A DNA stretch of 64,000 bases from Nageia nagi (lineage: Eukaryota; Plantae; Pinophyta): contig JBITNC010000001.1 of the NCBI GenBank assembly GCA_050084985.1, positions 8,680,001 to 8,744,000 on the forward strand, given 5' to 3'. Both the position numbers and the translations under genes were made by a program. Positions 3,912 through 55,089 of this stretch are shown one piece after another. Position 1 is the stretch's first letter; every line of letters begins with the position of its first letter. Below the pieces are notes generated by a model. The model was not told where the DNA came from and did no database searches. It was given only the letters and a program-made list of their open reading frames with translations.

Positions 3912-4084
3912 ATCAGTGAGATGCAGATTAAAAAGCATGTAAGGACAGCTGCTGTTTTGAGGCCATCATATTATATTGCAGTTGATAATGTTAAGCAATG
4001 TTTAGTGATGGCTATTCGTGGGACACGGTCTACCACAGACATCGTGACAGACTTGAACCCTCATAGTGAAAAGTTTGAAAAAGG
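3912..4084 (+). CDS. Lipase exon C (ISEMQ...RPSYYIAVD...AIRGT...EKG)
   Basis: TTTTCAG| acceptor, GG|GTATC donor; IRGT oxyanion-region motif of Lipase_3. Confidence 0.9.
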
Positions 4085-4323
4085 GTATCATCTCACTTTG
4101 TTACTTGTTATTTAACATTTCAATGCATTGCATGTTTTACTGTGTGCTCTGCCTAAGTCTGCATAGAGCTAGTTCCTGTATTGGTCTGCTTTTGTGCTAA
4201 ACTCTAGTCCGTGCTTGATATAGAGCTAGTTCCTTTCACCTGTTTTATTTAGTTGCAACCATTAATTTAATTTCAATTCATTTATATCATCTTTTCAACT
4301 AAACTCTAAAATCAAATTGTCAG

Positions 4324-4411
4324 GCATGCACATTCAGGGATGCTTGCAGCTGCAAAATGGTTGATGGAGGAGGAGCATGAAAATATTCAAATACTAATGG
4401 CAACATATCCT
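4324..4411 (+). CDS. Lipase exon D (HAHSGMLAAAKWLMEEEHENIQILMATYP)
   Basis: TGTCAG| acceptor, CCT|GTATG donor; HxGM motif. Confidence 0.9.
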
Positions 4412-4686
4412 GTATGTTTTTTTTCCTAAAATATTGATTAGAGAAACTGACCATATAGAACCTTTTTCGTAATGTTTTTTGACATCTATTTTCAGTTTAC
4501 TTAGGTTATTTTGTCGGGAATTTTTCTGGAGTTTTTGTTAAGGTTATAGGAAGTTAGGAACCAATAGCTGGGAAATGCAGTCCCCTTAAATCATATTTAT
4601 TTTTGTTTGGATGATTGATTTTTATCTCTCGTGAATTCATTTTTTGCTTAAGATATAATTGGTTAATGCATTTCCTTTGTTGTCAG

Positions 4687-4880
4687 GGATATAAATTTGT
4701 GCTCACAGGGCATTCTCTTGGGGCAGGGACTGCATCTTTGCTCTGCATATTACTTCAAGAGAAGTTTTTGAAGCTTAATATTCCCAATTCTTTGTTATTT
4801 TGTTGGGGATTTGGATGCCCCCGTGCATGGATGAGAAACTTTCACAAGAAGCTGCTTCCATTAAGAATCTTATTCTTCAG
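4687..4880 (+). CDS. Lipase exon E with GHSLG nucleophile; -1 frameshift at 4818-4822
   Basis: GYKFVLTGHSLGAG...GFGCP in one frame continues as PCMDEKLSQEAASIKNLILQ in another. The exon is 194 nt where 195 is needed. CAG|GTTTA donor. Confidence 0.9.
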
Positions 4881-7429: not shown

Positions 7430-7640
7430 CCATTCATATCCTTCAGATCTCAATCAGTTAAAATAAAGTTTCCTCTCATCAAATGCAAGTTGAGATTGAT
7501 CACAACATTCCCAAGGATGACAAGAAATCTTGCAAGTTTTCCATGCATAAGGTAGAGATTGAAGAGCACTTCATCTTCATGTGTCCTATCTATTATGAAT
7601 TCAAGGAAGATTTATCCACTTGTTCAAATGCTCAAGAGGA
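7430..7640 (+). mobile_element. Degenerate non-LTR retrotransposon (LINE) C-terminal zinc-finger fragment
   Basis: IPKDDKKSCKF..HKVEIEEHFIFMCPIYYE resembles the C..C..E..EH...C motif at the end of LINE ORF2. Confidence 0.55.
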
Positions 7641-9858: not shown

Positions 9859-11724
9859 TGTTAGGAATTATGTGTGAGGTTGTTAGTATGTGAGTCTCAG
9901 GTGTTGTTTGTTAGAGGAAGAAGACAAATATGTTTGTTACCCTCAACAAACTGTTGTGTGTGCAATTATAGGAACCTTGTGAAAATTTGTTAGAAGCAAT
10001 AAGACAACCAAGTTGGTTGCATGATATAACTATAAATACTTACATCTATAATGAAATAGATACTGGAGTATTCTTAAATCCTCTCATGGTATCAAAGCTG
10101 GAAATGGGTTGGTGAGGTTGCCCTCCCCCCCGAATATGTGGAGATATACATTACTATTTCTCTGCTGTAAATATGTACATAGAAAATGTAGTTAATTTTT
10201 GATAAGAGTAGGAAAGCATAGAAATAGGAGAAATAATGGCAAGGCATGGAATTCACTACACGATGGATAGGAGGATTCAATGTCAACAGTAAATGGAGAT
10301 GGGTGGTCAAACACAATGACTTTAGCTGGAAAGTCTTTATTCTACGTTAGAAAAGATTCGATCTTTTCAGAACGATGTTTTGGTGAAGAGGATGGTCTTA
10401 TGTGTTTCGAGAAGACGACGGTGTACCATAGGAACTTGGGCACATGTCATTCGAAAAGAGGCTTGTGATGTTCGACATGATCTGCTGCAAAACATAACAT
10501 AACGTAGCATGTCATCAACAGGATTTGAACGGTAAACCTCAGGCTAGTTGCTTGCATCGGTGTCAGATCATTCAAGAAGGAGTCTCTCATTGTGTTAGTA
10601 ATGGGGAAAGAATGCTTATATTTGTTTTTGTTTGGTATGTATTTTGAAGTAGTTTTATAGTTTAAATAAATTATATGACAATACTAATCTTTAATTACTA
10701 TTGTTATAATAGATTTTTTACATGTAGAATTTAGAAAAAAATTGGAGTGCATGGTTGATGTTACTCGACATTCCTAGCACTTGGATTGAAGATGCTTCGA
10801 GTTGTCATAGGCAATCAAAGAAAATTAAAACTTGACCTCTAGTAGACAGAGTGAACCTCGTATGTAGTAGCTTACTGTATTACATTTGGCGGTTGTAGCG
10901 ACTGGTCATCCATGCAGTCTGGTAAGATGAAGAGATTACCATAAGGACGCTCTAGAACGCTCATGGAGATAATGGCAAGCTTTAAAATTGTATGGTAAAT
11001 TACGATCTATACATGTGAATGGTTGTGTTTGTTCCCATTCACAAGTAGATAGATGCGATTGGTTGTGTTTGTCCCCAATCACAATTGTTGAAGATGATTG
11101 GTTGTGTATGTCTCGAATCATATGTTGTAAATGGTAGTGTGTGTCCCTATTTACAACTTTATACTTTGGATAATGTATGCATCCTTATCCAGTTATGTGT
11201 GATTGGTTGTGTGTGCCCCCAATCACAGGTAGGTGAACTGTAGTGTGTCTCCCTATTCACAACTATGGTGTTTGGATAGTGTGTATGCCCCTAATCAGTT
11301 GAAGTGGTAAATCATTGATGGTCAAATGAAGAAGCATAGAGAGGCGAGTTCCACTATTGCTTATCACCAATAGATGTGTAAGTCCCTATTCATACCTAGT
11401 ATATTGATGAACAAGAATATGCTCATCAAGCAGTTATTAGTACACTATCCCCATTTAGAGATTGATGTAATAAGGGGGAGTGTTAGGAATTATTACATCA
11501 TAAGAATTATGTGTGAGGTTGTTAGTGTGTGTCTCATGTGTTGTGTTTGTTAGAGGAAGAAGACAAACATGTTTGTTATCCTCAATAAACTATTGTGTGT
11601 GCAATTATAGGAACCTTGTGTAAGTTTGTTAGAAGCAATAAAATAACAAAGTTGATTGCATGATGTAACTATAAATACTTACATCTATAATGAAATAGAT
11701 AGTGGAGTATTCTAAATCCTCTCA
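9859..11724 (+). mobile_element. 1.87-kb non-autonomous (TRIM-like) Copia-derived LTR element
   Basis: LTRs 9859-10086 and 11481-11724 (TG..CA, clearly alignable). PBS TGGTATCAAAGC at 10087-10098, PPT TAAGGGGGAG at 11471-11480, TSD CTACA/CAACA (4/5). No intact ORF. Confidence 0.9.
11014..11390 (+). repeat. Array of nine stem-loops with a conserved 11-12-nt loop and variable but complementary stems
   Basis: Examples: TGTGAATGG-ttgtgtttgttc-CCATTCACA (11014-11043), GTTGTAAATGG-tagtgtgtgtcc-CTATTTACAAC (11124-11157), TGGATAA-tgtatgcatcc-TTATCCA (11167-11191), TGTGATTGG-ttgtgtgtgccc-CCAATCACA (11198-11227). Confidence 0.85.
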
Positions 11725-12891: not shown

Positions 12892-14579
12892 TGTTCTCCA
12901 TTGCCTGCAATAGTAGGGTTCTTGAAAGAGCAAAAGGGCGTAGGGAATGCGCTCGTGTTGGTTTTTTGTTCAATCTTCGGATTATAGGCCGGTTTCTATC
13001 TATTGTGAAGGTTAAAAGTAACAAGAAAGAGATAAAAAGGCTAAGAGTAACAAGAAAAAGATGAACACATTAAACAAAGAAAGCAAACTTGACACTAAAT
13101 AGCTCGAGCATTGCAGCACAAACAACAATCCATAACCAAGATTAAGAATAGTAAACTATCTTACCTTTTGGGTCTCGCAATCACAATACACAGCCACAAT
13201 TTAAGATAAGACTTCATAAATAACATTCACAAAGCGTAACAAACAGCCACATGTTGCAAAGGGCAAAGCATTATCAAATTACATTATCACACATGAAAAC
13301 ATCTTACACACTGGGCAAATTTGCTAGAATGTCCGACCTCTTGGACCTATAACAGTCCACTATTTATATAAATTATAGTTGCAATTGTGTTAAATTACAC
13401 AGTGCCAGATTCTGGAAATCTGACATCTCTATGCTATTGTACTTCCCAGCCGCAATCCTTCTGATATTTCTTTGACTAGATCCTCTTGAGATTGTAGTAG
13501 ATTATGAATGCATGGTTTGTCGGCTTGATATGTACGATTTAGCTCTGTGCTTTGTCGGTAGCCATTTAACTGTTTGCAACCATTATTGGTGATCATTGTA
13601 GTTTCGAGTTGCATATAATAATGAGGGCAATGAATATTGTATCATGGATATCCCAGGAAGAATTGCTACTGTCATGTGGTAATGAGTTGTGGTTGACACA
13701 TTGACAGAGCCTCGGGGGTCAATGTGATGGCAGAAACTTGCTTGACGGGTTCTGTTTTCTCTCGACGGGATTTAGTGATGGCAGAAACTTACTTAACACC
13801 CGCCAATTTTAGACATGTTTGACATCATCACTTAAAATCGACGGGTTCTGTTTGGTGGTTCTTTTGAAATATCTTCCGCTGAACATCATAACTCTTGCTG
13901 ATGATTTTCTTGGGACCTGTTGATTTTAAGCAAAAAGTATGATGTCATCGCTCGAAATCGGCAGGCTTTGGACAATGGAATTCTTGAAATATCTGCTGCT
14001 AATTTTCGGCATAAGGCGGAACTTCTGTTTGGAAATCCACAGGCTTTACTATATTACCCGTTGGTGACTTTGACTCAATAGAGATTCTTATCTACAATAC
14101 TTACCGGAAAGATCTAAGTTTCTACAATAATCGGACTTGACTTAGACATTTACTTCCCTTACATGTGTTGGTATCTCTCGGACACGACACATTACTTCCC
14201 GGATATGACTTTGACATATTAACAATAACATATGACTTCAGACTTATGTACAGTTACCGGAAAGTATTAGACATACTATGATCAACCTCCGGGACATATT
14301 ACAACATGCGCTAGATAGTGATTAAGCTTCAAACCAAAATGTTTAAGATTTATTTACATAGATAGTACTCGGACTATTGACATTACCTGGAACTTTCAAA
14401 ACTTAACAAACTCTGACAAAATGACAAAGTACAAAGAATAGACACCTTTCGAATATTTACAAAACGTGAAAGGGGAGAAAGAAGCAGAAATTAAGAATGA
14501 ATTTATTTGAAATTAATGAAAGAATAAAAAATATCAGAATGTTACCCTGTTCTCAGAGTGTGATTTTGAAAGAATAACA
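12892..14579 (-). repeat. 3' LTR of the Tat element (1,688 bp)
   Basis: Aligns along its length with 30872-32695; reverse TATA (TATTTATA) near 13361. Confidence 0.92.
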
Positions 14580-14647
14580 GTCTTTTGGCGGCTCTCGGGG
14601 TCTTAGCCTACTGAAGAATCGAACCTTTTACTTGCTACTCCACCTGC

Positions 14648-17600
14648 CTATCCAGATGAAGCTTTTGAACTGGTCTTAGGTGGCAAAATTAGTTCTGTGG
14701 GGAGCAAAGATCGGAGTTTGGTATACAAATCTTGATAATCTACTTGTGATAAAACAGGGCATGCTTGTAATTTGATTGTGTCCGCTCTGAAACCTGTCCG
14801 CACATTTTCCAATCTTCCGGCATATAGAAACCTTGCAATTGCTTCTTGAGTTGTGTCACTTATTTGCTGTAGATTTGAGATTTGTTTATCAGAGAAAGAC
14901 TGTTCCAAAAATTGAATGGTATTGGCCACCCATTGGTTGGCACTACCCTGTACATCTTGTTCCTCCCATAATTTGGGAGTTTTTAATTCTATTAAAGAAT
15001 GAAAGAATTTGTTAATAAAAACAATCTTTGTCTTCAATTGTTGTTTCTAAATATCTAACCTAAATATCAAGTCCTATAATTCGCAGATGTCCCGACTTTT
15101 CTTTAAAATTGTTTGCCTTTGCCTAGGGGTGATGGTAGCTAGATCCTTTTCGGTCAGGGTTTTCAACCAACTCTACATTCCTTCAATTATTGACCTGGGT
15201 ACACTTAGAGCTAACTTGTGCAAAGTAGCCTAGGTAATACATTGTTGGAGAACTTGTTCTGTTTGATTTTTTAATAAATGCAACTGTGATAGACTCACCA
15301 GTCTTTCTCCTATTTGCTCAACCAGGGATTTTTTGAAGTTTTTCACAATTTGCAGCAGCTTTGTCTTATCATCACTAAGTACTTTGTTTGCTGCTATTGC
15401 CTTTTTCAACTCCTCTTCAGTTTGTTGAGCCTTTTGATTATCTATTACAGCGGCTTGAGCTTTCAGATCTTCCATTGTTTCTTTACATTTTCCTGTCCAA
15501 CTTTTGTAATAAATTCTTATTCTGGTTCTGCAGCCTGGCAATTGTTGTCTTTAAGGGAGTACTCCTTATACTGATCTATCTTCTTATTTAACCTATCAAT
15601 CTTATTTTCCATAGATTGGAGACTTTTGCAGGCCGGCATGGAAGTATTTACAAGCAATCGAGATTGGTCTACAACATCGGGGCAATTTTGATATCTTCCA
15701 TTTCTATTACTCTACTCAAAATTCTAGACTATTGCTCTGGTAGCATAGGTGGTTTATTTACAAATGTTGCCCAATGAATGGGCTGTATTATCCGAGTTGA
15801 AAAAATACTTCTTATTTCCTCTTGTGAGGCTGTAGAAAAAAGAATCAAAGAATGTGGAATTGCACATGTCCTTGAAGTGGATGCCGGTGTGTCTTGTGGA
15901 GGCTCTTGTATTGTCTTCTGAGAGGAAACTAAAATTTCAACTTCCTCCTCTTCTTCTTCTAAAGGTTTTTCCTTCTCAGGAGTCTTATCCATTGGGTCGG
16001 ATTCTTTTTCTTTCTTAGGATCCTTATCATCATCGTTGTCTCCATCTCCACTCGCTTCACCCCCAACTGCTGTGGCACTAGCCATTCTGAGTACATTGCC
16101 TCCTTGCTGTACCTCATCCCTTGTTTCTTCCCGTACATCCTAGTAGACGATAGTGTCTGTGTTTTGGGGTCCTTGAGTTTCTTCAGCATCAAACATCTTT
16201 GTTTCTCTTGTGATTGCTTCCGACATTTCTTGACTCATTCTAGGTGACGGAGTTTGTGCACTCCTAGCTGCCAATGGTTGTGTGGTTCAGGGTTTCTTTT
16301 TGGGTATCTCTTCCTTCTCCGGGGCTTGTTGTTTTTGAGTCTATGCCAAAAGATGGACTCTTCTCCTTTTTGGGGAAGACTCCCAAGAAACAATAGCTGT
16401 TTCATCTTGACTTTTCTTCTTATTCTTTAGCGGCTACTGTGAACCAAATGGTTCACGTGTCTCTTCTCTTTTCGTTGACCCCTGTGCCCTTTGAGCCTTG
16501 GGCTTTGTCACCCTATTTAGATATTCCTTGAAAATTCGATGGGATTGGTTTACCTTTTTCTGGCAATGGGTCTTGCATGTACTGAGCTTCCCAGTACTTA
16601 TTATATTGAAACTCACCAAAAGGCTGTTCTTCAACATGATGAACCTTAGTGGTATATTCAAATCGAAATTTGGTGAAATAATCAATTTTGTTGGGGCCCC
16701 AACCCAACTCATCTCTTAACTAGGTAAAAACTTCCGGGTTGAGGGCAAACTCTTGCCGCCTAACCTCCCAGTTTCTGTATTTTTTGATACCCTCGAGGGT
16801 TAACCAGGCCTTATTCAAAGCTCCAATTTCCCACTTTGGGGACTCCTCAGCTTCTTGTTCAAATTGATTGACAAAATATTCAACATGGGGCTGGGGCTCA
16901 TGAACAAAAGTTGGGCGCTTCTTATTTGACCTTATAATCTTTGTAATTTCTCCTGGTGGGTCATATGCCCAAGGGGAATCTGCCATTTCTAACTTGAAAT
17001 TTTGTACAATAAAATTAGCTATACTATCTTTACAATCTATTTCTAGCAATGTAAAATTTTCAGTAGTTGCCGACATATTTACAATGGGCTTGAAATTACC
17101 CCTAGACCCATATTTTGTTTCTATAGCATGCATTTGCCAACCCATTTCTATAGAATGCACTTGGGTAGTAACAAATTTTGGTAGGAAAAATGGGTTCTCA
17201 AAATACCCATATCTTATAATAACAGTTCTGTTCTTCAAGAAGTACCAATCACCTATCTTATTGCCACCTTGCAATTTTCGCATGGTCGACTGACATAACC
17301 TATGGGGAGCCTTTCCTGTTAGAATCTGCACCACCGGTGCATAGAATTTCTCCATAAATTCATAATATGACCCATGTAGCTTGGTCAATATAGGGACTCT
17401 CAAATCAATTGGCGTAGGTGCCATGGTCAGGGTTGCAGGTTCAACTTGAAGTCCTCCTTCCACCAATGCCTCCAGATTTTGGTGGACTATGAGCCACCAT
17501 AGATAGGAAGAATGCCAGAAATTTGATTTTTCTATTTTAAAGAGATTCTTCCTTATCTCATTTGAAATGAACGTAGGAAAATCATAGAAGACATGGGCCT

Positions 17601-17762
17601 CTATGATATTGTAGGCCATTCTCATCATGGCCTCATCAACCTCTATTTGGGTCTTCTTCCCAAGAATGATCGCTAATGTTTGCAAGACCTTTCTATCTCG
17701 AGACTTCTTGAAGGAGGCGATATCATAACTATGCATAATCTTTGTGCATCTACCATCATACC
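14648..17762 (-). pseudogene. C-terminal part of the Tat element's accessory ORF (unknown function; acidic and coiled-coil C-terminus)
   Basis: Colinear ORF pieces 16720-17762, 16513-16707, 15729-16085, 15230-15541 and 14648-15037, separated by stops and frameshifts. Homologous to the ORF at 19393-22546. Confidence 0.75.
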
Positions 17763-18065
17763 TGTTGTGACTAAAATACAACATGCTCCAAAATCCTATG
17801 ATTTTGGGGACCCTCAAGCACACCTTTGTATATACTTCGATTTGTCGTTGTCTTCACTCCACATGTTGCGTCACCGAGACCCTAATTCATGGACTACTCA
17901 TAGTTCATAGCCTCTCCCTTCATTAGAGTTAGCTAGGATAAAATAGAAATTGCAAATTCCTTAGAATGGCTAAGCCTAGGAAGAGTAAAAGTTGAATCTA
18001 GGTGAATTAGGAAGTCCAAGATAAGCCATAAGCTGATCAAGTCAAACTAGGCATTCCCAAGGGCT

Positions 18066-19007
18066 GGCGCATGCTTCAAAAAGACAGAATTGTCTTTTTG
18101 AACCATGCGACTGGGCTAAGGGGTCGTCCAGGTGAGAGGGAAGGTTCGAATATGAAGTCTGGGCACTTACAAGCCCAACGCATGCCTCCAGGAGACAAAA
18201 CTTGGAATTTCGTGAGTATATGCTAGAGATAGGAAGTATTCTGGACCAGAAGAAGGCGCAATAATCCTAAGGCAAAGACACTAGGAGGCTAGTGCATGCT
18301 TCTTTTTGAACCATGCGATTTGGCTAAGAGGACAAGTTGAGCAAGTTTGGATGCTGGAAAAAGAATCTAAGTCACCTAGGAGGTTGGCACATGCCTCAAA
18401 AAGACAAAATCTTGTCTTTTTGAACTATGCGCCAAGCTTGGAAGGGTTTTCAATTCGACAGAAAGTGAAAATTTGACAACACATGGACCTGGGGAACTCA
18501 AAACCAATTCAAGCATATCTAGGGGGGCTAGCGTATGATCTCAAAAGACAATTTTTTGACTTTTTGAGGCATGTGCCAAGCCCAGGAAGCCTCTAGGATT
18601 CGAGAAGCATGAAAATTCGGCTAAGGCATGAGCATTTGAAGGTCAAAATTCGCAAAATAGGCCAATAGGAGGCTGATGCATGTTTCAAAAAGACAAAATA
18701 TTGTCTTTTTGAACCATGTGACCAAGCTGGAGTGGCAAGCAAGCCTGGCGCAACCTCAAAAAGTCACAATCTTGACTTTTGAAAGCATGCGCCAAGCCTA
18801 CAGGTTGCCCAATTTGAAACGAAGCATCAAAATTGATAAATTCAGCCAATTGCAAGACCAAAAATCAGAGAAATCAGGTTAATGGGTGAGTTGGAAGATC
18901 AAAGCAAGCAAGCACATGACTAGGAGACCCAACGTTGGGAGCATACTCCCTTCCAGGGTTGGCGCATGGTTTAAAAAGTCACCTTTCTGTCTTTTTGTCC
19001 ATGCGCC
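18066..19007. repeat. About eight dispersed ~45-bp imperfect palindromes GGCGCATGnnTCAAAAAGACA..TGTCTTTTTGAnnCATGCGCC
   Basis: Copies near 18066, 18179 (degenerate), 18292 (centre deleted), 18386, 18531, 18676, 18747 and 18961. Confidence 0.85.
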
Positions 19008-19163
19008 AAGCTTGGATGACCTTCTGGACCCCAACGTCTGGACACAAGAGGCTTGGCATGAGTTTTCGAACTGGCACACATCTCGAGGTCAACCAGATAG
19101 AGGGCTATGATTAGGTTTGATAGAAACCCCAGCCGACTAGGGCAAGGTGGGAGACAAATTGGC

Positions 19164-19171
19164 TATAAATA
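19164..19171 (+). promoter_or_regulatory. Putative TATA box (TATAAATA) of the ORF inside the 5.9-kb unit
   Basis: CTATAAATA lies about 230 nt upstream of ATG 19393 and downstream of the palindrome array. Confidence 0.5.
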
Positions 19172-19392
19172 CAAGCTTTGGGACCTCAGTTTCCCATATT
19201 CAAAATTTGCTCCACTTCTACCCTTGCACCAAAATAGCAGGAAATTGCAAATTTTTGCATCCAAACATCTTCATTAGTGCATCTTAGGGCTTGCGCAAGC
19301 ATTTGGGAGGGTAGCTACCATTACGTGAGGGTTATTCTCACTTGGAAACCCACGTAGCATCCTTGGTGAGCCACGTTCCAATTGAAAATACC

Positions 19393-22300
19393 ATGACTCC
19401 CTCCAAGGGCAATTCGACTCCTAACTTTGCTAGGGACCTCGAGTGGTTGAAATAAGATTGCATTATCTCCATTCTTGAAGGACAATAAGCCCTTTCCCAA
19501 GGGCCCAGGTTCTCAAGGAACGGTTTTGCAACCATCGGAGATACTAACTGGCAAAACATAGATCCCATGGAGATGAGGGAGAGCATTCATGGGCCTCCTT
19601 CCACTGACCTAAAGCAGGACATTGTCTTCTCCGGGCTCTCCACCTGCACCTTCATCCTGTTCATAGCTCCATTCCCTGAGTTGTGCATGGAAGTCGATCA
19701 CCATTGGCAGAAGGGAGAGAGAATCCTCCGAGACATCATTATATACTTTCGCCCTGAAGCTATTAAAGCAGCATTTCAATGGACTTCCAAGGGTGACTAT
19801 GAATATAGCGAAGCTAGGTCACTCACATACTACCAAGAGACTCCTAGGGCATCCATCACTATTAAGAGTTGGATGTTTGAAGAACATCACGGGTTGAAGG
19901 GAAATGCACTCATCAATGCTTCTCGCTTTAACTTCTACCGGGTAGTCAAGTTAATGATTCTCCTGTTATCCAAAGTTTTCGGGAAGGAAGATGCTTCAAA
20001 ATTCAGGAAGGAGTTCTTTGGGTTCATTCTTGAGATTGTTAGAGGCAAAAGGATTCGATGGAGCAAGGTGTTGAGCGATTCAATTGCCGATCAATTGTCA
20101 TCCATTGATACAACTCCTAAATTCTACCTCAGTTCATACTTGGTATACATGTTGCTCCACGGCAAATACAGGGTTACAGCGTAGGGTGAGACAACTTGGG
20201 TAGAAAGAGGAACTTACTCCATTTGGAAGTGCTATCCCAAGTGGAAGTTAGAGAGAAGGTGGGACAATTTTACAATGAAAAACGATGGATGGGAATATGA
20301 GATATATAAGGAACTTAAGGGAGAGATCATAGTGGCACAAATATCCAATTCCGCCCAAGATGCTTTGAAGAAGCATGGCAATTTCTTCCTCCATCACCAA
20401 CACTTCTCTTACATTCGTATACATGGATCAGCTGTACAGCCCTATCAATTGCCAAGGTTCGTGAATAACAGGATTTTGCTAATGGAGATGATGAGGCAAT
20501 TGGCCTTTTTACATCAAATCTTCCGATCGCTGTGGGAGAATACTAGTGTAAGTTCTGGATTGATGTGGATGCTATGAAAGAAGAGTTGGCTAGGTTAAAC
20601 TTCAAAAGGATGCTTTCCATCGACCACTATGATCCGGACCACAAGTTGCACTTATTCTTCATGAAGGAAAGGAAGAAACCCTATGAACATAAGCCACTTA
20701 AAGATGAGGAACTTTTTCGGAATATCAGCAATGACTTAGAGATCAAGAGGATAAGAGAAAGGGTACACAAGAATGCAAGTGATGAGCAACCCATGTGGAA
20801 GCCACAACTAGCAAGAGACTCTCGTGGAACAAAGGAAGAAGAACTCAAGAGTCTACTTCCAGGGTCACCTAGTCTTCTCCAGTAAACAAGATAACTATTG
20901 GGCAGTGTACAACCATGCATGGTAAGAACCCAGTTGAATGAGTTGTAAGGCAAGTGCAGGCCATCATGGATGAGCATGATGCGAGAGAACTAGAGCAGGT
21001 AGCCACAACAAGGTAGTAAGGTGTGTGTGAAATAGACATCAAGATCCTTCTCCACCACCTAGACCACTTAGAGTCACCTTAGTTGCGACGTCACTTGTTG
21101 TACCACCATCTGGGTCAGTAGCCTCCAGTCCCTCTTATAGGCCTGATGAAAACCAAGAGGAAGGAAAGATTGGAGTATTGGAGGATGAACAGGAGCAGAA
21201 TATGGTCCAGGATGAGGAGATCCTTGATGCGTAGTGACAAGATGTGTATCTGGAGATTTTAGATGAGACTCATAGGCATACAATGTCAAGGCTATCTATA
21301 GAGAGAAGTAGAGAACCAATTTCAGAGACAGTATAGAGGATTCAATTGAAGAGGACTCGGTAGTCCCAGGCCACAGGAGCTTTAGATGATCAACATGATG
21401 AACAGGAAGAGAGACCCTCAAAGAGAATAAAGAGGAACATCATTGCCAATCAAGATGCCGTTGTGGACACTTATCAGCCATCACCCACGGATGAGTGGGG
21501 TGTCAACATGGAGGAGTGCCTTGATGTGTTCAACATGTACGTCGGAAAAGAATTTGGAGCAAGGGAAAAGGATGACCAATTAGGAGAAAGCTCCACCCAT
21601 CCAGGAAAATCCCAGACGTATGTCCACTTGGCCGATAATGCTATACACATTAAGACTATTATAGCTGACAAGGAGAACCCACAATGCCCAGAAGACCTCA
21701 GGCAGATTACCCAAATCGTTCATACAGGTCCGATCGGTTTGGCTGGTCGGAAACATATAATCATCTCCAATGTTGAGGCCATCACCAAAGATGGTATGAT
21801 GAAAGATAAGGAGATTAAGGGCCTCAAGAAGGAGTTAGCCGCATAGAAGAAGTTGACAAAGGAATTGGAGTCGGCTAAGGTACCCATCGAAGAACTTCGA
21901 AAGATCAAGCCACTAAAGGAGAGTATGATTGCAGTGAAACAAAAGCACACAGTATTGGAGCATTGGAGAGGGTAGCACTCGAGGAGTAGAAGCTCAAAGA
22001 TATCATTATGGAGAGAACCAGTTTTCTCAGAGTCTTGGATCCCAGGCGACACATGATCATGCAGTTTGAGATGACACATAATTGCAGGTCAGAAGACGTG
22101 AAGTTCGGCAAAGAATATTGGTTCTATTTGGGTGTGGTCAATCAAATGGTCACTCGATTCCAAGAGATGCAAAAGGATGTGCAGAAGCTCAATGAAAAAG
22201 TGCAAACACTTGCCTTGAGCAAATGGAGTTCCTGGTAAAGTTCGTTGATAATGATGCGAGCAATCGAGATAGAGACCTAGTGGTGGCAGACGTGAGGCAC

Positions 22301-22546
22301 TTTCTTCATGGCTTGATTATGACTGAAGATATCAACACATTCCAGACTGGCAGTTACTTGGAGCATTTGCTTAAAGCTCATGCATGCGAGAAGGATATGT
22401 TGAGGATAGTAGACAAGGTGGAGTGCTACATGGCCAAGAACAAGCCCAGGTTATCAGAGATACTGCATGGATTGAAGCTTACAGCTAAATTCCTAGACGA
22501 CGACTTTGAGGGGCGTGTAGAGGCGTTGGGCCCACCAAACGCCTAG
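19393..22546 (+). pseudogene. Degenerate ~1,000-codon accessory ORF, homologous to the Tat accessory ORF
   Basis: ATG 19393 is in frame with 19567-20184; colinear pieces continue to 22546. Shared motifs with 16720-17762: FYLSSYLVYMLLH/FWHSSYLWWLIVH, PYQLPRF/PFFLPKF, YDP. Confidence 0.8.
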
Positions 22547-23661
22547 TCACAATACTTGTTATATTTTATTTCATAGTTATGATTGGAAATTTAATTTTAT
22601 TTGTTAATAATTCCCAAGTTTGTGATGGATGAGGATTTGCTCCCACAAACTTGGAAGATATCTTGTGACGCCATGTGGCGTATTTTGATTGGACCATATT
22701 TTATTTTCTCGTAAGTTGCAATTAGGGTTAAGGCAAAATTTAGAGTTGCTCTAAAACTATATATAGCCCGTTTCGGGTCATTTGTAGGGGATTAGACATT
22801 TTGTAAAAAATTGGACTACTTAACACTATTCTTCCAAACTTGCAAGTTTCTTTTTTTTTGCCATTGTGATATAAATCTCAAGTAATTGAAGTGAGCATGT
22901 TCTTATTTGAGACTATGGATGTCATTGTATGTTATTTCTCTATGCTATCTTGAATGTTTGGTTCAGTTTGTAAATCTTCTAAAAGGTGGACAAAAGAGTG
23001 CTTGTAGATCCTACGAAACATTCTAAGTGGTGTGTGGTTGTAGCATTCCGTAGTTTGCACTTTGGATTAGTGTCTTCCAAGAGAACTCGCATATGTTGTT
23101 TAACTTAGGAACTTCATTCCGTCATTGAGTCTTACCCCATCCTATCCTACCTTTCCATCGCTTTAGCTTCAAGCTCCCCTTGATGAGGTATTCATGTTGT
23201 TGCCTCACAAGTCGGATCGGGAATGCATGGAACCTAAAACAAATCCATGAGAGTCAAGTCTCTAAAATTCACACTAATCGGTGAGAACATTGCCCTAGAG
23301 CCCCATTCATATATCATTGTCTCTTCATAAACCCCTTTTCTTTATTTTTCCATTTTTTACGTGGCTTTCGCAACTAACTCCTTTTATTTTTTTATTTTTC
23401 TTCAAGAAACAACCTAACTGGATTAGAGAGACCCTTCGAGTCCTTGAGTAACAAATTTCATTTGAGTTGGTAATAGCTTAAAACTACTCTACCAAACCAC
23501 CTAAGTAAGCTCATGTACCCTTCACTTTCTAACCTTTGAGGTGAACAATCCTCATAGCGGGTAGAGGTAACGCCCTACCACTCAGGTGTTGGAGTCTTTC
23601 TACTAAGCCCTGCGATACTACTTGCCAAACTGTAGGGGTAGGAATGAAAAAGCCCCCAACA

Positions 23662-24245
23662 ATACCTTTTGTCAATCCAATCTAGCATCTCTACTTCATT
23701 CCTGTAAAAGTCCTCACGCTTTAGATCAATTTGTTTTTTAACGTGGAAGGTCTAGTCGGTTGGGATTGCAAGTGCATGCACAATAGCTTTGGGGGAGTTA
23801 TCCAGGATTATCTCGGGTCCATATCCGGATTCTACTTTCTTTGGTTGCTGCTCCTTGAAAGCCTTGATTTCATACCATTGTTGGCCATGCCTGAGCACGA
23901 TAGCATACAACAACTCAGTACAGGTGAAAGATTCGTAGGGCACATCATATGCAAGGCTCTTGTCTATCATGACGTCCCTCTTGGACTCAGCCAGCAATTT
24001 ACCTTTACCTGCAACCTCGGGCTTTAGGTGCTACAATAGGATCCTCATGGGATCGGCGCACTAGGTATCCATATGATTGATGACCCCCATCTCCGTCCAG
24101 TTGATGCCAAGAGCATTCTCCAAATATTCATCTTGAATTGCGATGAGTCAACGTCCACCCCCTCATGTTCAGTCATAGCTAGTTCCTTGGTTGCTGTCAT
24201 AGTGTCTACTATTTTCTTTGCAGCACGAGCTAGCATACAAAACAT
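23662..24245 (-). pseudogene. N-terminal part of the Tat accessory ORF
   Basis: ORF pieces 24045-24257 and 23752-23997 continue past a stop to WIDKRY at the TSD, in frame with the part left of the insertion. Confidence 0.7.
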
Positions 24246-24719
24246 GCAAACTTGCAATATTAAGCTCTGTGACTCTCTTCTTCCTCACTTAACTTGCTCT
24301 GTAGGTTCTAAGTTCTGGTTCTCTCGGAAACTTGTGCTTTGAAATTTGCTAAGTGAAGAATAGGAGGGTTAGGGAGTATGTTTTATTTGCTTAAGGTTTG
24401 TAATTGATGTCTATTAATGGCAATTAATGACCAAGGAATGTTGGGGTTGGTGTGAAGTACAGTGCCATGGATGATAGGGGAGTACATTAGTTTGAAGCGT
24501 GCCAAATTTAAACTGAGAGATAGGGTGCAGCTGGTGGGTTTTCCAAGGAGATCTCCTTCTTAAATGTTGTCCTTTTGATTGAACAATTTACATTAAACAA
24601 TCCTAACTCCACACCATACTTAGTTAATTTATGGCTACCTACCTCTTTAGAAAATGTGCCTAAGCTACAGGAGAATGTACAAACAATAAATGATTTTTTT
24701 TTGGAAGATAACAACATTT

Positions 24720-27328
24720 ACACTATACAATCTTTCGTGGGTGTTGTGTAATCACCCTATCACCTGATAATGTTTCAAATAGATTCCATTTACTAGGATA
24801 GGTAGCTCTTGGGACCTCGTGATATCTTGAAGTTTAAATGCATTATTTTGCATAGATTGAGTAATGATATAGGGCCCGCTCCACAAGGAATCAAACTTTT
24901 GATGTTTTCCGGGCTTTGCTCTTTCCTCATCCCATTTGAGGATAATGTCTCATGTTTCAAAGTTTACCCGGGAAGACTTTTTCTTGTCAAACCACTTTTT
25001 AACTATTTATTGTTGATGTTGGAAAGACCCATATGCTCTATTTTTGTCTTCTTATAGTTTCATGAGCTGATTGAATCTTGCTTGTAATGGTTCAAAATCA
25101 TAATCTTCCAACTCTTGCAGAACTTTTAGCGCAGGCAACTTAAGATGAATTGGCAATATTGGTTTTTAACCATGTACTAATACATAAGGGATGTCTTGAT
25201 AGCTGATTTGATGCAAATTCTATCTGCCCATAATGCATAGTCTAATTGTGTATGCCATTGTCTGGGATTCCCTTCAATCGTCCTTTTGATGATCTATGTT
25301 AGGTTCTTATTAGTTGATTATGCTAACCCATTCCCTTGTGGGTAATATTTGAAGAGAATAACCAGTAGATCCTGTTGTTTGATACAATAGTCTGTTGGAT
25401 ACCAAAGAGAGTGATTATTCTCTTGATCATCTCTATCACTACTTCCTGATCTGCATTCTTACATGGCATGGCTTCCGACCATCTTGTGAAATACTATGTT
25501 GGAGTCAGAATAAACTTATGGCTTGCTGAGGAATTAGGATTTATAACACAAATGAAATCAAGACCCTATTGTTGGAAAGGTTCCTTAACAACCACAGGCT
25601 TAAGAGGCATTGTAGCTTGTTTTTTTTTCCCACATATCTGCTACATTTGTCACACTCCCGAGCTATCTTGAACGAGTCTTGAAATACAGTAGGCCAATAA
25701 TACTCAGCTTGTAACACTTTTGCTGAAGTGGTTGGACCACTATAGTGTCCTCTAGAGAATCCGTAATGAAATTCATGTAGTATTCTTCAAGCTTCATCAT
25801 AAGTCACACATCTCAATAGGGTTTGATCAAAGTTTTTCCTATAAAGATAGTCATCTATCATCACAAACTTTAATGCTTGCAGCCTGAATCTCCTCCTTTG
25901 AAACCTATATAGGGATTCAAGACATTTACCAATCTGAAAATAAAAAATAAATTATTTAATCCAATCACTTTCTTGATTAAGATGCTTTTCATCTTCTATG
26001 ATAGCAATCATGTGTGAGGTTTCTGCTATATTTTCACAGAGAGCCCTATCCCTAATAAGCTTGGTTGGCTCACTATCTACATTATATTCCATTATCTTTG
26101 CAATCCAATCAGCTTTTCCTTCACCCAATTATTCTTGAATAATATAGTTTCTCACATCAAGGTGGATAGTATATACAAGAATCTTATTATGGGACACAAT
26201 GCTTAAACTTCTTAAGTCTTTTCATTATGGAAAACACTTGTTTCTCGATAAATGAATACCTTTTCTTATGTCGGTGCAGTGTTTGATTATGAAAGGCAAT
26301 TGAATGTTCTTCTTTCTGGTCATTCTTCTATGCTAGAATGGCAATGATACTTTTTTCTGCTCCGTATGCATACATAATGAAATCTTTTGAAAAATCAAGA
26401 TTCTTCAAAATAGGAGCTTCTGTTACAACCCTTTTGATGTCCTGAAAAGCTTGCTTTGCTTCCTCTAACCAGGAGAATACATCTTTTTTTAACATTGCAG
26501 TAATTGGAGAAACTATTTATGAAAAATCATTAATAAATTTCTTAACAAAATTGATTTGACCAAGGAAAGATTGTAGGGTTTTTTTGTTGGAGGGGAGGGG
26601 CAACGCTTCAATGGCTTTTACTCTGTCTGGATAAATTGCCAATCTCTTCTCTGAGACAATGTGACCAAACAATTTTCCTTGGTTAACTATAAAAATGGCC
26701 TTTTTGGGATTAATTGAGATCCCAAATTCTATACATTTTTCAAAAACTTGCTTAAAAGGATGCAAATGATCTTTTCTATTCTTGGAAAATACTATGATAT
26801 CATCCAGGTAGACTAAAATGATCTTGTTTATCAATTCACCAAAGGCATGGTCTATTGCCCTTTGAAATGTAGCTCTAGCATTAGATAGCCCAAAGGGTAT
26901 CCTTTGAAATGTAAATGTCCCCCATTTGGTTGTGAATGCAGTTTTGAATTGATCCTCATCTTTTACCCAAATTTGGTTTAATCCCAAGTAGCCATCAATT
27001 ATAGAAAAACAACATACTCCAGTTATTGTGTGCAGGATTTACTCCATGGGAGGGAGGGGATAATTATCTTTGAGAGACACTTAATTTGGATTTTGAAGTC
27101 TATGCATAACCTAATTTCTCTATTCTTTTTCATTACTGGGACTAGATTGGCAACCCAAGAAAAATGCTTGATAGGATAGATAATTTTAGAATCAAGCAAT
27201 TTAATTAACTCTTGCTTCATGGCTTCTTCAAATTTTGGGTTGACCGGCCTTTGTTTTTGCTTGTATGGTTTGGCTTCTGGTTTAAGTTCAATGGTGTGCT
27301 GGATCACATTTGTGTCATATGTTTTCAA
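24720..27328 (-). pseudogene. Tat pol: RT (27328-26517), RNase H and integrase, heavily degenerate
   Basis: LCIDF, KTAFTTKWGTF, PFGLSNA, VYLDD, FLGQINF in RT; integrase remnants GHYSGPTT, AGYYWP-like and YYPQGNG-like further left. Confidence 0.88.
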
Positions 27329-27838
27329 ATCATCATAAGTCTAGGCAATTGCTTTTGAGAACTAGTGATAAATCTGAAAAATGTTCTTTTTTTATTCTTC
27401 AGAACACTTTGATCCAACCTTTATACATTTTTCGGGTTCTACTTTCATCTCAATATTACCCTCCTTTTGAATAGCCAAGGATTTAGCTTTCTGAACATCT
27501 TTTGAATCAAACAATCTTTTAAAAGAAAGCAATTCTTTTGGTATGACATTGTTTCTAAGTTGAATTACATCTAACTTTTGGAAATAGTCAGGTAGTTCTT
27601 CAATACCAAAGGTATGAGCCACTGCTTCATCTAATAGGAAATTCATAATGTGTTCATCAAAGTCAAACAGTTGCTAGAAGTTTGCAACATCAAGCATTGA
27701 TGGTCCACATTGAAGTTTGACTCCAAAGCTTCCTCTCTTGTAATGAGCATGGTTATAACGTTCCCTTTTACCAGCAAGTGCATTAGCAACTTGATTATAC
27801 CTTCTAGAAATTGAGATAAAATTAATAACTAGGAATGA

Positions 27839-28861
27839 CTATAGTAAGGTCCATATTCTATTCCTGTAGGTTTTCAGATAGTGATGTTTTGCACTAATTT
27901 GGTTTTTAATTTGCTTTACGACCAATTCAAAATCACCATGCACAATTAGACATTTGATGCCCATGCTAATTGCTTTGGAAAACCCTAAACAGAGGGCTTC
28001 ATACTCAACAACATTGTTTGTGTAAATCCATGTGAATCTGAATGAAAATCTTCTCATATGTTCCTCTAGCAATTCAAAGACAACACCAGCTCCGCATCCA
28101 TGTTTACATCTTGCCCCATCAAAGTACATTGTCCATATCTCATGTTTCTTTTCAGCTGTGACTGAAATTGGCTGCACATTTTCATATAAACAATAGTTTC
28201 TCATGCCAATGTTTGTGACGTGATAATTGAGGTGATTTGCTGAAAGAAGTTCATTTGTTAGTAGTGTTTCTCTGAGTGCATCTCTTTCAAACACTTCTAC
28301 AAGTTCAGAGCCATTCATATAGTTATATTTTGTGATCTTCTTAAGATGAACACTTTTGGTACTCTCATTTAGAATCATTACTTGTTTATTTTGGAAAGGG
28401 AGTAAAAGATGTGTATAATCCAAAGCTAAGTATCCTCCCAATTTAACAGTAAACTCTCTAGACAAACAGATTCCAAATAGAGTTGGAAGGTCAACAACAA
28501 TAATATCTTGAATGACACAGATATCAAGGAATGCATTAAGAGTAATTGAAACTCCTTTAACACTACCAACGACATCTATTGAGGAAGAATCTAATTGTAT
28601 GGCACCATCAATGCATCTCGTGATATATAATTTCTTTTCATTTGCAACAGCTTTGGGGATTACGATAATAGTAGCTTCGGTATCTATCATGCAATTATTA
28701 ACTACCCAACCTTCTAGTCTAAAGGACATATAGAAAGGTGAAGGTCTTCTTATACCTATAAAAGCCAAAGGGACATCATCAGATATTGCAAAGACAACAT
28801 TACCCTCATTTACCTTTTTTTTACCACTTTTCAACTTCAAAGCTTCTTGCAAAAGGTCCAT
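27839..28861 (-). CDS. Tat aspartic protease followed directly by an additional (archaeal-type) RNase H domain
   Basis: NCMIDTEAT protease-like motif, then WTMYFDGA..GAGVV..TNNVVEYEAL..HGDFELVVKQI (RNase HI), located upstream of RT. Confidence 0.85.
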   Translation of the reverse strand: MDLLQEALKLKSGKKKVNEGNVVFAISDDVPLAFIGIRRPSPFYMSFRLEGWVVNNCMIDTEATIIVIPKAVANEKKLYITRCIDGAIQLDSSSIDVVGSVKGVSITLNAFLDICVIQDIIVVDLPTLFGICLSREFTVKLGGYLALDYTHLLLPFQNKQVMILNESTKSVHLKKITKYNYMNGSELVEVFERDALRETLLTNELLSANHLNYHVTNIGMRNYCLYENVQPISVTAEKKHEIWTMYFDGARCKHGCGAGVVFELLEEHMRRFSFRFTWIYTNNVVEYEALCLGFSKAISMGIKCLIVHGDFELVVKQIKNQISAKHHYLKTYRNRIWTLL

Positions 28862-29395
28862 CTATTTCGAAATCCTTAATGCATCAAACATGGTCATTTT
28901 GGAAAGCATTTTCTTCAATTCTTCCACAATGTTATATGGAGCATAAGGGACAAGCTTACTTGTTTCGACGGATTGATATGTTTTGAATTGCTGAGTGGCC
29001 TTTTTTTTATAATGATCAGTGATAAAAGGATATCTTAATGAATGATGCCTCTCTTTCTTTGAGAGTTCTTTTCTTGTCACAACGGGATTTCCTGCTACAG
29101 GGGTAGTATTACCCGGGTCCTAAGAAATATGATCCGAATGTTCAGGAAGTTGATTTTCTTGATTTTGTGGTTGAATCACAAGAGTCTTAGCTCTTTTTGA
29201 TTCAGGTTGTACTGGAATGGTTTGTTGATTTTGCTAAGCGGCTTGGGGCTATTGCTGAGTTGTTGAAGAAGAAGCTCTAGTTTGAACACAATTTTCTTGT
29301 TCTCCAGCATAACTTGGAAGTCAAAAATTAACCATGGTAAGGTTAGCAATAGGATCTGATGCAGGTTCTACCATTTGGTCTGAATGCAAGCTCAA

Positions 29396-30514
29396 CTATT
29401 GGTGTTGATACACAGCGTATGAGTCTGGACAATGAGGAGCTGAACATGGAGGGTACCACTTTGTAATGTCCGTAGTATCACTCTTTGCAGCACTAATAAC
29501 CGTATTATCAATTGCTTTAGGAACATTAGGTAGTTTTGTTTGGTTCTTGGGCTGAAATCTAGGTTGATACTGGTTATCATATCTTCTGTAATTAAAGTTT
29601 TGATTCTGTCTCGCTTGCAAAGTGAACTTATTTGTAAGATTCGTAATAGTTACCTCCAATTGCCTTATCCTTTCTTCCTCTTGAGATTTAGAATCAACAT
29701 TTGTACTAGTAGATGCAAGAGCAGGTAGTGCTGGTACTTGATTTTGAATGATAGGCTTGGGAGGAGGAGATGGTAAGGCTAACACTTCAAGATGAGTAAT
29801 TTGTGAAGCTTGTTTAGGAGGTAAATTAGGAAACAAAGGCATAATAGTTCTTGCTTGTAGCTTTCCAGAGGATACTAAGGTATGTTTAGAGGTTTTAGCC
29901 GTTTGGTAAACATTAGAGAAAGTATCTCCAGACATAACAATAAGCATATTAAGATCAGGAAGAAAAACTTTCCTATAATATACCAAGGCTTGTGCATTTG
30001 TTGGTCTAATCCTTATCAGGATAGATTTCCATGTTTTCTTAAATCTGATATTGAAATCATCAATAGACTTATGAGTGTGCTGTTTGATGCATGCTATAAG
30101 GCTCAGAAAGGTACTATTATCACCATCTGCAGCAAATCTTTTGATTAGCGCTTGACATAACTTTCCCCAGGTATTTATAGATTGAGGGGTGAGAGTTCTA
30201 AACCATTCAGCTGCTTTGCCTTCAAAAGAATGCAATAGCAATCTGGTCATCACTGTTTCATCAGTGATATCAAAACTTGAAGCCAAAAGATAAATATCCT
30301 GACAGTGCTCATATGGTGTTTTGCCAGACCCATCATACTTAAGCAAAAATTTGAAAGTTCCTTGGGGAACAACTGGGGAATTAGCAAAAAACCAAAGGAT
30401 GTCCGTTATTCCAAGCAGGGAAATCAGCAGGAGCAAGTTGAGCCATGCTTGGACCACTGGTATCAAGTGAAGGATTTTTCGGGGCATAGTCAAATATGGC
30501 CGATAATGGAACAA
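29396..30514 (-). CDS. Tat gag (Retrotrans_gag)
   Basis: KYDGSG..HC, RLLLHSFEGKAAEWF...INTWGKLCQALIKRF, IKQ..SIDDFNIRF. Confidence 0.85.
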   Translation of the reverse strand: MFHYRPYLTMPRKILHLIPVVQAWLNLLLLISLLGITDILWFFANSPVVPQGTFKFLLKYDGSGKTPYEHCQDIYLLASSFDITDETVMTRLLLHSFEGKAAEWFRTLTPQSINTWGKLCQALIKRFAADGDNSTFLSLIACIKQHTHKSIDDFNIRFKKTWKSILIRIRPTNAQALVYYRKVFLPDLNMLIVMSGDTFSNVYQTAKTSKHTLVSSGKLQARTIMPLFPNLPPKQASQITHLEVLALPSPPPKPIIQNQVPALPALASTSTNVDSKSQEEERIRQLEVTITNLTNKFTLQARQNQNFNYRRYDNQYQPRFQPKNQTKLPNVPKAIDNTVISAAKSDTTDITKWYPPCSAPHCPDSYAVYQHQ

Positions 30515-30794
30515 ATTTCAAAGGAATTTGAGGAGACAAAGTCCGGGTAATCTTTCGCCTAGTCCTATGAGAAATTGATAGCTTTTGAAATATTGACTGT
30601 CTGAGGGAATTTTTGGCACTACTTCTAGTAAGTCTGCTTTCTGGAGGTGTCAGGGTTCGAAATGTTGACTAGTTGACAACAGAGTCGCCAATAAGGTAAC
30701 AAAAACCTTATAATATTTCAAAGCACTTAGTGATAACTTACCAGATACAACTATCTGGCCTATTCACACTCACTAAATATGGAATTTAGCTCGC

Positions 30795-30812
30795 GTCCCA
30801 CCGGATCTGCCA
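30795..30812 (-). promoter_or_regulatory. Putative tRNA-Arg-type primer binding site TGGCAGATCCGGTGGGAC
   Basis: Resembles the Tat/Ogre PBS TGGCACGCCCGGTGGGAC (recalled) but lies 59 nt inside the TSD-defined LTR end. Confidence 0.55.
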
Positions 30813-30871
30813 AAAACGAACTTTTCTACTATTGATCGGTATAATGTAACCTCAAGGGTTTTGTCTGGTCG

Positions 30872-32695
30872 TGTTCTCCATTGTCTGCAACAGTAAGGTC
30901 CTTGAAAGAGCAGAAGGAGGTGGGGAATGCGCTCGTATTGGTTTTCTGCTCAATCTTCGGATTATAGGCTGATTCCTATCTATTTTGAAGGTTAAAAGTA
31001 ACAGAAAAGAGATAAAAAGGTTAAGAGTAATAAGAAAGAGATGAACATATTAAACAAAGAAAGCAAACTTGACACTAAATAGCCCGGGCATTGCAGCACA
31101 GACAACAATCCATAATCAAGATTAAGAATAGTAAACTATCTTTCCCTTGGAGTCTCACAATCACAATACACAACCACAATTTAAGATAAGACTTCATGCA
31201 TAGCATTCACAAAGTGTAACAGATAGCCACATGTTGCAAAAGGCAAAGCATTATCAAATTGCATTATCACACATGAAAGCATGTTACACACTGGGCAAAT
31301 TTGCTAGAATGTCCGACTCTTGGGCCTATAACAATCCATTATTTATATATCTACAATTGGGTGGTTGTCCGCCATTAATGCTCTTAACTAAGCTACTGAC
31401 TGAGAAGAGTATAAGGAACTATTTACAAATGTACAAATTATAGTTGCAACTGTGCTAGATTACACAGTGACTAAGTACAATCAGCACCAAATTTTGGAAG
31501 TTTGACATCTCTAGACTGTTGTACTTCTCAGCTACAATCCTATTGATATGTCTTTGACTGGATCCTCTTGAGATTGTAGCAGATTATGAATGCATGGTTT
31601 GCCGGCTTGATTTGTACGGTTTAGCTCTGTGCTCTGTCAGTAGCCATCTAATTGTTTGCGACCATTAATGGTGATCATTGTAGTTTTGGGTTGCATAGAA
31701 TAATGAGGGTAATGAATATTGTATCATGGAGATCCCAGGAAGAATTGCTATTGTGATGTGGTAATGAGTTGTGGTTGATGCATTGACAGAGCCCCGGGGG
31801 TCAAACACTCATGATTAAGTGGACCTAGGTGTTCTTCCTAACTCATTATTCCTTTTTTTGCTTGATGGGTTCTGTTTCCTCTCAACGGGATTTAGTGATA
31901 GCAAAAACTTAACACCCGTTGATTTTAGACATGTCTAACATCATCACTTAAAATCATCAGGTTTTGTTTGCTGGTTCTTTTGAAATATCTTCCGCTGAAT
32001 GTCATAACTCCTGCGTATGATTTTCTCGAGACCCATTGATTTTAGGGAAAAAGTATGATGTCATTGCTCGAAATCGGCAGGCTCTGGACAATGGACTTCT
32101 TGAAATATCTCCCTTGATTTTTGACATATTGTGGAACTTTTCGTCTAGAAATCCATGGGCTTTACTATATTACCCGTTGGTGACTTCGACTCAATAGAGA
32201 CTCTTATCTACAATACTTCCCGGAAAGATCTAGGTTTCTACAATACCCGGTCTTGACTTAGACATTTACTTCCTTTACATGTGTTGGTATCTCCCGCACA
32301 CGACACATTACTTCCCGGATATGACTTTGACATATTAACAATGACTTATGACTTTAGAATTATGTACGGTTATCGGAAAGTATTAGGCAAATTATGATCA
32401 ACCTCAGGGACATATTACAACATCTGCTAGATAGCGGTTAAGCTTCGAACCAAAATGTTTAAGACTTATTTACATAAATAGTACCTAGACTATTGATAGT
32501 ACCCAGAACTTTCAAGACTTAACAAACTCTGACAAAATGACTAAGTACAAAGAATAGACACCTTTCGAATATTTACAAAATGTGAAAGGGGAATAAGAAG
32601 TAGGAATTAAAAATGAATTTATTTGAAATTAATGAAAGAATAAAAAATATCAGAATGTTACCCTATTCTTAGAGTGTGATTATGAAAGAATAACA
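30872..32695 (-). repeat. 5' LTR of the Tat element (1,824 bp)
   Basis: Direct repeat of 12892-14579, with extra segments near 31355-31435 and 31803-31858. Confidence 0.92.
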
Positions 32696-55003: not shown

Positions 55004-55089
55004 ATTGCCCGTGCTAGCTGAGAAGCGTGGTTTGAGATCTTTAAGCAAGAGTGTGCTTTGTGTGTGAATTCTGGGTTGGAGCTACTAGA

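Follow-up and report, generated by a model that had tools for sequence, protein, structure and literature searches.

A 5.9-kb insertion in the Nageia nagi genome is probably a solo giant long terminal repeat holding a decayed retrotransposon accessory gene

The order of an extra RNase H, the reverse transcriptase (RT) and an extra open reading frame (ORF) defines the TatI and TatII groups of Ty3/gypsy retrotransposons, of which TatII is the gymnosperm group, with target-site duplications (TSDs) of 5 or 4 bp and, in 26% of the 27 elements described, an extra ORF on the 3' side in forward orientation (PMC6317226). The extra ORFs of plant Gypsy elements have been described in the internal region, and what they do in Tat, Athila and Ogre elements has long been debated as an open question (PMC7264820, PMC11963269). 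Plant long terminal repeats (LTRs) of 5-6.5 kb are known, those of Ogre measuring 1.9-6.5 kb (PMC6431247; PMC6317226). Literature searches limited to openly accessible sources listed no description of a whole gene inside a plant LTR; PMC13468544 and PMC13477047 contributed nothing on this point, and a term search of PMC11539532 gave no hits. Here we analyse a stretch of 64,000 nucleotides from the conifer Nageia nagi (contig JBITNC010000001.1, positions 8,680,001 to 8,744,000; hereafter the window), in which a unit of 5,899 bp, at 17763-23661 on the plus strand, carries a broken gene homologous to the extra ORF of the TatII-type element into which it is inserted.

We put at roughly 0.65 the probability that this unit is the solo giant LTR of a Tat-like Ty3/gypsy retrotransposon, with a whole accessory gene in its U3 (unique 3') region. 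The unit begins with TGTTG, ends with CAACA and is flanked by ATACC at 17758-17762 and, as an exact match, at 23662-23666 (both plus strand). When it is removed, the minus-strand reading frame of the host element resumes in register over one ATACC copy, which indicates that the boundaries are exact and that there was one clean insertion. Contigs joining 17669 to 23662, which host copies lacking the insert would yield, were detected in two of four public sequencing runs (one contig each). In each of the four runs, 1,616 to 8,240 contigs covered the unit together with its flanks in all 30 bins. Neither a second LTR nor a primer site lies between the two duplications, nor does gag-pol in the parts scanned, and the two non-coding arms of the unit have no direct or inverted similarity to each other (local scores of 25 and 27, below the shuffle means of 28 and 29). 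An earlier note on this DNA, made from its letters alone, had claimed the TGTTG/CAACA termini, the perfect 5-bp TSD and the lack of terminal direct repeats and of gag-pol inside the unit, and these claims were confirmed. A shared upstream sequence before 17778, suggested by 12 contigs of run X4, was rejected, as their median length passes the terminus by only about 3 letters.

The left terminus (17763-17830, plus strand), TGTTGTGACTAA..., is conserved and of the integrase type, and contains two short hairpins (folding z -3.2). Its start recurs in the window at 1569 on the minus strand, as well as in two of the related loci presented below (L001, position 8413, and L002, position 2849). The recurrence in the window, already pointed out in the earlier note, is a second, diverged left end (minus strand, from 1569 to 1147) that retains one palindrome and is cut by a nested small LTR; it scores 324 against the unit, the best of 100 shuffles scoring 197. 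Six dyad-symmetric palindromes of about 50 bp, which are candidate binding sites, occupy 18062-19016. They fold with z values of -4.3 to -7.3, as good a fold being found in none of 200 shuffles, and the array consists likewise of six palindromes in L001 and of seven in L002. An initiator-like motif, TCA(T/G)TT, stands some 22 nt downstream of TATA box 1; the two (19164-19195, plus strand) are conserved in L001, L002 and L003 and would be the promoter of the gene. Beyond the gene, TATA box 2 is accompanied by a hairpin and a TCATTT initiator-like motif (22758-22785, plus strand), the whole being conserved in L003, L005 and a distant unit found in L002. This second box is kept in four of four right arms, with the initiator-like motif about 20 nt downstream, a spacing similar to that at TATA box 1. 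There is no ORF of 100 residues downstream of it within the unit and, judging from sequence, it is likely the LTR promoter for genomic RNA. The remainder (22786-23661, plus strand) resembles an R-U5 (repeat and unique 5') arm, with a conserved subterminal motif and the right terminus ...CCCCCAACA, and is conserved in relatives; it is mildly T-rich, with a skew of 0.12 vs 0.20-0.22 in the host LTR downstream of its TATA box. The palindrome array, the TATA box at 19164 and the second TATA-like box at 22758 had all been proposed beforehand and are present as described, both boxes being conserved in relatives. The subterminal motif (23540-23600) has a contig depth 10-20 times that of the last 50 bp of the unit, a depth that is not a copy number, and this hints at a wider group of elements that share the motif.

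A metagenome scan with 56 of its 64 parts covered rendered 591 pattern matches, among which at least five loci (L001 to L005) were confirmed as relatives. These align to the unit at 60-71% identity over 2.6-3.9 kb. The left end, palindrome array and TATA box 1 of the unit are found in L001 and L002, and TATA box 2 and its right end in L003 and L005. Left end and gene fall within one continuous alignment of 3.2 kb in L001, the distance from left end to gene is 1,547 bp in L002 vs 1,630 bp in the window, and in L005 the right end likewise follows the gene. Since ends, array, promoters and gene are shared by copies that are 30-40% diverged, sequence comparison makes the unit a member of a family with a fixed layout and not a one-off rearrangement. 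Positions 1-2849 of L002 hold a unit of a distant subfamily, with a related gene tail, TATA box 2 and a right end at 2817, and only 31 bp separate it from a second unit, which starts there with its left end; this arrangement may be due to nested insertion, to targeting or to an assembly artefact. Within 1-2300 of L003 there are two occurrences of the right end, both with one and the same flank, and an inverted segment; the contig is probably a chimera and entered the count as a single right end.

Relatives of the insert's protein were also found. Two of the 10 proteins checked carry a species name, and the named sources are Cryptomeria and Taxus. A distant member (P0111, on a 3.5-kb contig) is an unbroken protein of 1,010 residues with 21% identity (E 8e-5), from which it follows that whole genes of the wider family exist. 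The first ca. 75 residues of a Cryptomeria gene model named mannosyltransferase (P0140) match the family (E 1e-3), possibly a transposon fragment fused into the gene model. A weak search for longer homologues found none among 1,366 candidates. Scans of viral contigs gave no relative, a terminus match there (L006) being a chance match inside a phage gene, and scans of genome contigs gave no protein relative; two bacterial matches (L007 and L008) had no similarity to the window and were discarded.

The gene of the unit (19393-22546, plus strand) is a broken single-exon gene of about 1,050 codons. It had been reported in the earlier note as an ORF of ca. 3.1 kb, but it is not open: its longest stop-free stretch is 231 codons, there are at least nine in-frame stops in the aligned segments, and it switches frame five times with respect to L005, which reads in one frame over window positions 19951-22546. 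Because L005 keeps a single frame over all that it covers, the ancestral gene can be taken as a single exon of ca. 1,050 codons. The ratio of nonsynonymous to synonymous substitution rates (dN/dS) against the window copy, computed on segments chosen by tblastx and thus biased to conserved parts, was 0.13 for L001 (465 codons), 0.19 for L004 (746 codons) and 0.08 for L005 (795 codons, with dS near saturation), dS being saturated in L002 and L003. Third codon positions change most in all five related loci. These patterns indicate that the gene was formerly under purifying selection. A profile built from 76 relatives matches the 3' extra ORF of the host element (independent E-value 7.7e-9), and an HHalign comparison of the unit's gene profile with that ORF gave a probability of 96.2% and an E-value of 2.6e-9 over 238 columns. 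This homology makes the cargo an accessory gene of Tat elements rather than a transposase or a gene captured from the host.

The product comprises a globular N-terminal domain, predicted to be VANC/PMD-like, an acidic middle and a C-terminal part that, by eye, is probably a coiled coil. Pfam rendered nothing credible for the window gene or its relatives; DUF1985, DUF287 and PMD were absent among the 25 of 30 Pfam families listed for the 76 members, and also for 13 long relatives. Atlas gave weak leads to Transposase_32, ATHILA, DUF1985 and PMD, at 0.80-0.84, and sequence searches of solved structures gave nothing significant. Structural models were made of the N-terminal part, the C-terminal two thirds lying outside them. 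The window protein was modelled with X in place of three stops, and this model, with a predicted local distance difference test score (pLDDT) of 72, matched the VANC21-DNA structure 9lnk_A at rank 5 (Z 4.5, root-mean-square deviation (rmsd) 5.1, 222 residues aligned), which was the only match listed with more than 82 aligned residues. An intact relative (P0015), 27% identical to the window protein over 341 residues, was modelled with a pLDDT of 83, and its model placed the same structure first among 48,161 chains, with Z 8.0, rmsd 4.7 and 238 residues aligned, the next match having Z 3.1. The family protein is therefore predicted to fold like VANC21. Against this stand the identity of 6% in that match, a Z of 8 at the edge of the tool's meaningful range, and Foldseek searches of the PDB and of viral models, in which neither model had a match at E 0.001 and VANC21 was missed; rescoring of the Foldseek matches gave a best Z of 2.4. 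DUF1985 is present in VANC, whose targets are motifs arranged as tandem repeats (PMC5735166), and VANC is structurally homologous to the PMD protein MAIN (PMC13547354). PMD proteins have been described to counter Polycomb silencing via DNA motifs (bioRxiv 2024.09.27.615353), and Gypsy elements encode some of the PMD clades (PMC5418596).

A solo giant LTR could have arisen as follows. In this lineage the LTR boundary would lie upstream of the 3' extra gene and its promoter, placing the gene within U3, so that gene, promoter and palindrome array would be copied into both LTRs. TATA box 2 would start the genomic RNA in the 5' LTR, and TATA box 1 would give a subgenomic mRNA ending in R. A full element would have integrated, recombination between its two long LTRs would have deleted gag-pol and left the gene-bearing LTR between the copies of the 5-bp duplication; in this copy the gene has decayed. 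Going by the modelled fold, the product of the accessory gene is likely a sequence-specific anti-silencing factor and the palindrome array its target; if the preceding steps hold, the odds are about even that the intact protein binds the palindromes as a dimer or oligomer and keeps the LTR unsilenced, as VANC21 does for VANDAL21. It could also be the case that the array serves as a hotspot of small interfering RNA (siRNA), as in Sireviruses.

The LTR reading is favoured above all because TATA box 2 is conserved, yet there is nothing to transcribe from it inside the unit. It also accommodates the TG...CA ends, with a short inverted repeat and conserved in related copies, the 5-bp TSD as in TatII, the derivation of the gene from a retrotransposon and the order of parts that the unit shares with the 3' portion of the host. 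Besides the points raised on the fold and on the choice of dN/dS segments, several observations weigh against it. In three relatives TATA box 2 reads TATTTATA, that is, a canonical box on the opposite strand, and its direction is hence deduced from the initiator-like motif. In the loci and contigs compared, neither a pair of units nor a transition from a unit into an internal region was found. None of four left and four right ends, two of which share one flank of only 31 bp, has a primer-binding site, polypurine tract or gag-pol adjoining, and the flanks are mutually unrelated; read in either direction, these flanks match the host or Met primer site with 5 mismatches at best, and tblastx gave no match in any related locus to the gag-pol regions of three elements of the window. 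High-depth contigs end at 23659-23661, and among the matches listed those that continue past the right end disagree (run X1, n=5, agreement 0.52; run X3, n=2, agreement 0.67), although a shared continuation overlapping by only 30 letters could escape this check. One solo LTR per 3.7-7.5 complete elements has been described in Pinaceae, and in spruce the solo ratio was not found to be linked to LTR length (PMC5751070). With the Pinaceae ratios, a calculation by hand puts at about 3% the chance that six ends outside this copy are all solitary. For Cunninghamia the described ratio of solo to intact copies is 0.97, and for Taxus wallichiana 5.51 (PMC13415678), which makes mostly solitary copies plausible: the corresponding chances, also by hand, are 8% and 42%. 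Taken over this range of 3-42%, the missing full-length parent weakens the LTR reading without refuting it. The solo giant LTR with a gene in U3 put forward in the earlier note remains the best fit, whereas the pair of units around gag-pol that it implies was not found.

The solitary state of all eight ends would be explained directly if the unit, originating from a Tat LTR region, were a stand-alone DNA cassette that is moved whole by an integrase acting in trans and never paired around gag-pol. The ending of high-depth contigs at 23659-23661, with the few that continue differing from one another, fits this as well, as does the persistence of the layout across subfamilies with saturated synonymous sites. 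Such a cassette would, however, have a terminal inverted repeat of only 5 bp and a conserved, outward-facing second promoter without evident reason; the five gene pieces scanned (which leave out 20885-21363) contain no transposase or integrase domain, and six solitary ends have an 8% to 42% chance under the LTR reading at solo ratios of 0.97 to 5.51. Retrotransposon integrases are, moreover, not known to excise integrated DNA. Integrase-type DNA transposons such as Ginger and Polinton have long terminal inverted repeats and their own DDE integrase or transposase, unlike the unit, in which the inverted repeat is limited to those 5 bp, the arm-to-arm inverted score is below that of shuffles, and the same five pieces (20885-21363 left out) give no Pfam match to a DDE integrase or transposase. 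On balance we hold the cassette to be unlikely, while still giving it some weight, and we give less credence to a conifer family of stand-alone anti-silencing cassettes, in which a VANC-like gene with its palindromic targets would lie between integrase-type ends, lack gag-pol, be spread by the integrase of Tat elements and unsilence related elements in trans.

In L003, L005 and the distant unit of L002, TATA box 2 reads TATAAATA on the minus strand, which is what would be expected of a giant LTR in the reverse orientation, in which the 0.9-kb right arm would be U3, TATA box 2 would fire leftwards and the gene would lie antisense in a very long R-U5. Antisense extra ORFs have been described as the rule in Retand (PMC11963269), and the right flank of L005 has 12 purines in 15 positions in the reverse reading. 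That of L003 has only 6 in 15, though, and no left flank reads as a primer site; in addition, on the plus strand TATA box 2 is followed by the TCATTT initiator-like motif and the right arm is rich in T, as is the R-U5 of the host, and the homologous host ORF is in sense with respect to its LTR, so that we regard a reversed LTR as very improbable. Marginally lower still we rate a one-off deletion or nested composite of an element with short LTRs and an internal extra ORF. The homologous ORF of the host TatII element is indeed internal, with an LTR of 1.7-1.8 kb, and the last 1.1 kb of the unit resembles a complete ordinary LTR, but the independent copies largely refute a rearrangement: the left end stands before the gene at a similar distance in L002 and in continuous alignment over 3.2 kb in L001, L005 has the unit's right end after the gene, the arms share no repeat, and the unit is fully covered in all four runs. 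The scenario that the earlier note had set against its own proposal, with short LTRs, the ORF internal and this copy a one-off, is thus contradicted by the recurrence of ends, array, promoters and gene at 30-40% divergence.

The host is a TatII-type Ty3/gypsy element on the minus strand (12892-32695), with LTRs at 30872-32695 and 12892-14579 that are 1.7-1.8 kb long and 10% apart, a TSD of CTTAG, gag, and an extra RNase H before the RT (RVT_3 ahead of RVT_1 in pol, preceded by a protease-like motif recognised by eye). Its 3' extra ORF, after pol and running from ca. 24200 to 14650 on the minus strand, is the one that the unit interrupts and a homologue of the gene of the unit; it is in sense orientation to the host LTR, and the 3' part of the host has the same order as the unit, namely ORF, TATA box, T-rich arm and AACA. 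Within 30872-30795 (minus strand), a primer-site-like sequence starts 59 nt past the LTR end fixed by CTTAG, 0-5 nt being usual, in this one copy, and no G-rich tract abuts the host 3' LTR. Elsewhere in the window, elements with paired repeats lie at 40125-46586, 49632-58983 (with 53294-56346 nested in it) and 9855-11724, their repeats being 93%, 84%, 92% and 91% identical; three of them have Met-type primer sites, and all look ordinary. Frames at 35820-37926 (minus strand) resemble, by eye, a decayed hAT-type transposase.

Solo-LTR formation has been treated as the route by which plant genomes strip retrotransposons of coding capacity. If the LTR reading is true, the process would in this family leave behind a whole accessory gene, its promoter and its likely target sites. 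The predicted VANC21-like fold and the adjoining conserved palindrome array would offer a concrete protein-DNA pair and, if the proposed function is also true, sequence-specific anti-silencing would extend from dicot DNA transposons to gymnosperm retrotransposons, which are dominant in genomes of 10 Gb.

Among known systems, sag of mouse mammary tumour virus (MMTV) and other LTR-borne retroviral ORFs are whole genes in U3 that survive in solo LTRs. The unit differs from MMTV sag in that its protein is unrelated, its LTR content is about ten times larger and it belongs to a plant retrotransposon. Gymnosperm TatII elements with a forward 3' extra ORF (PMC6317226) are like the unit in the 5-bp TSD, the TG...CA ends and the homologous extra ORF, which is in sense with respect to an LTR-like arm downstream, but their ORF is internal and lost on solo-LTR formation, while in the unit it lies between integrase-type ends, has a promoter and a palindrome array of its own, and is not attached to gag-pol. 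Ogre (PMC6431247, PMC6317226) shares with the unit the size class of its LTR, 1.9-6.5 kb, and an accessory protein related to PMD, a relation that is predicted here; its extra ORFs have been described in the internal region, whereas the gene of the unit would be inside the LTR. The Sirevirus LTR (PMC4728375) has, as the unit does, an array of hairpin-forming palindromes upstream of the TATA box, but it is a short LTR without a gene, from a Ty1/copia element, and its palindromes have been read as siRNA hotspots. VANC21 of the Mu-like transposon VANDAL21 (PDB 9lnk; PMC5735166, PMC13547354) has the predicted fold in common over ca. 240 residues, and both it and the gene of the unit are transposon accessory genes located beside repeated non-coding motifs. 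The two differ in that their proteins are 6% identical, the unit's protein has no Pfam match to DUF1985 or DUF287 and its gene has no introns. The Mu-like origin of VANDAL elements is not matched by the unit, with its 5-bp TSD, LTR-type ends and retrotransposon homologue, and VANC has been described as dicot-specific (PMC5735166, PMC13547354), whereas the gene of the unit is found in the context of a gymnosperm retrotransposon.

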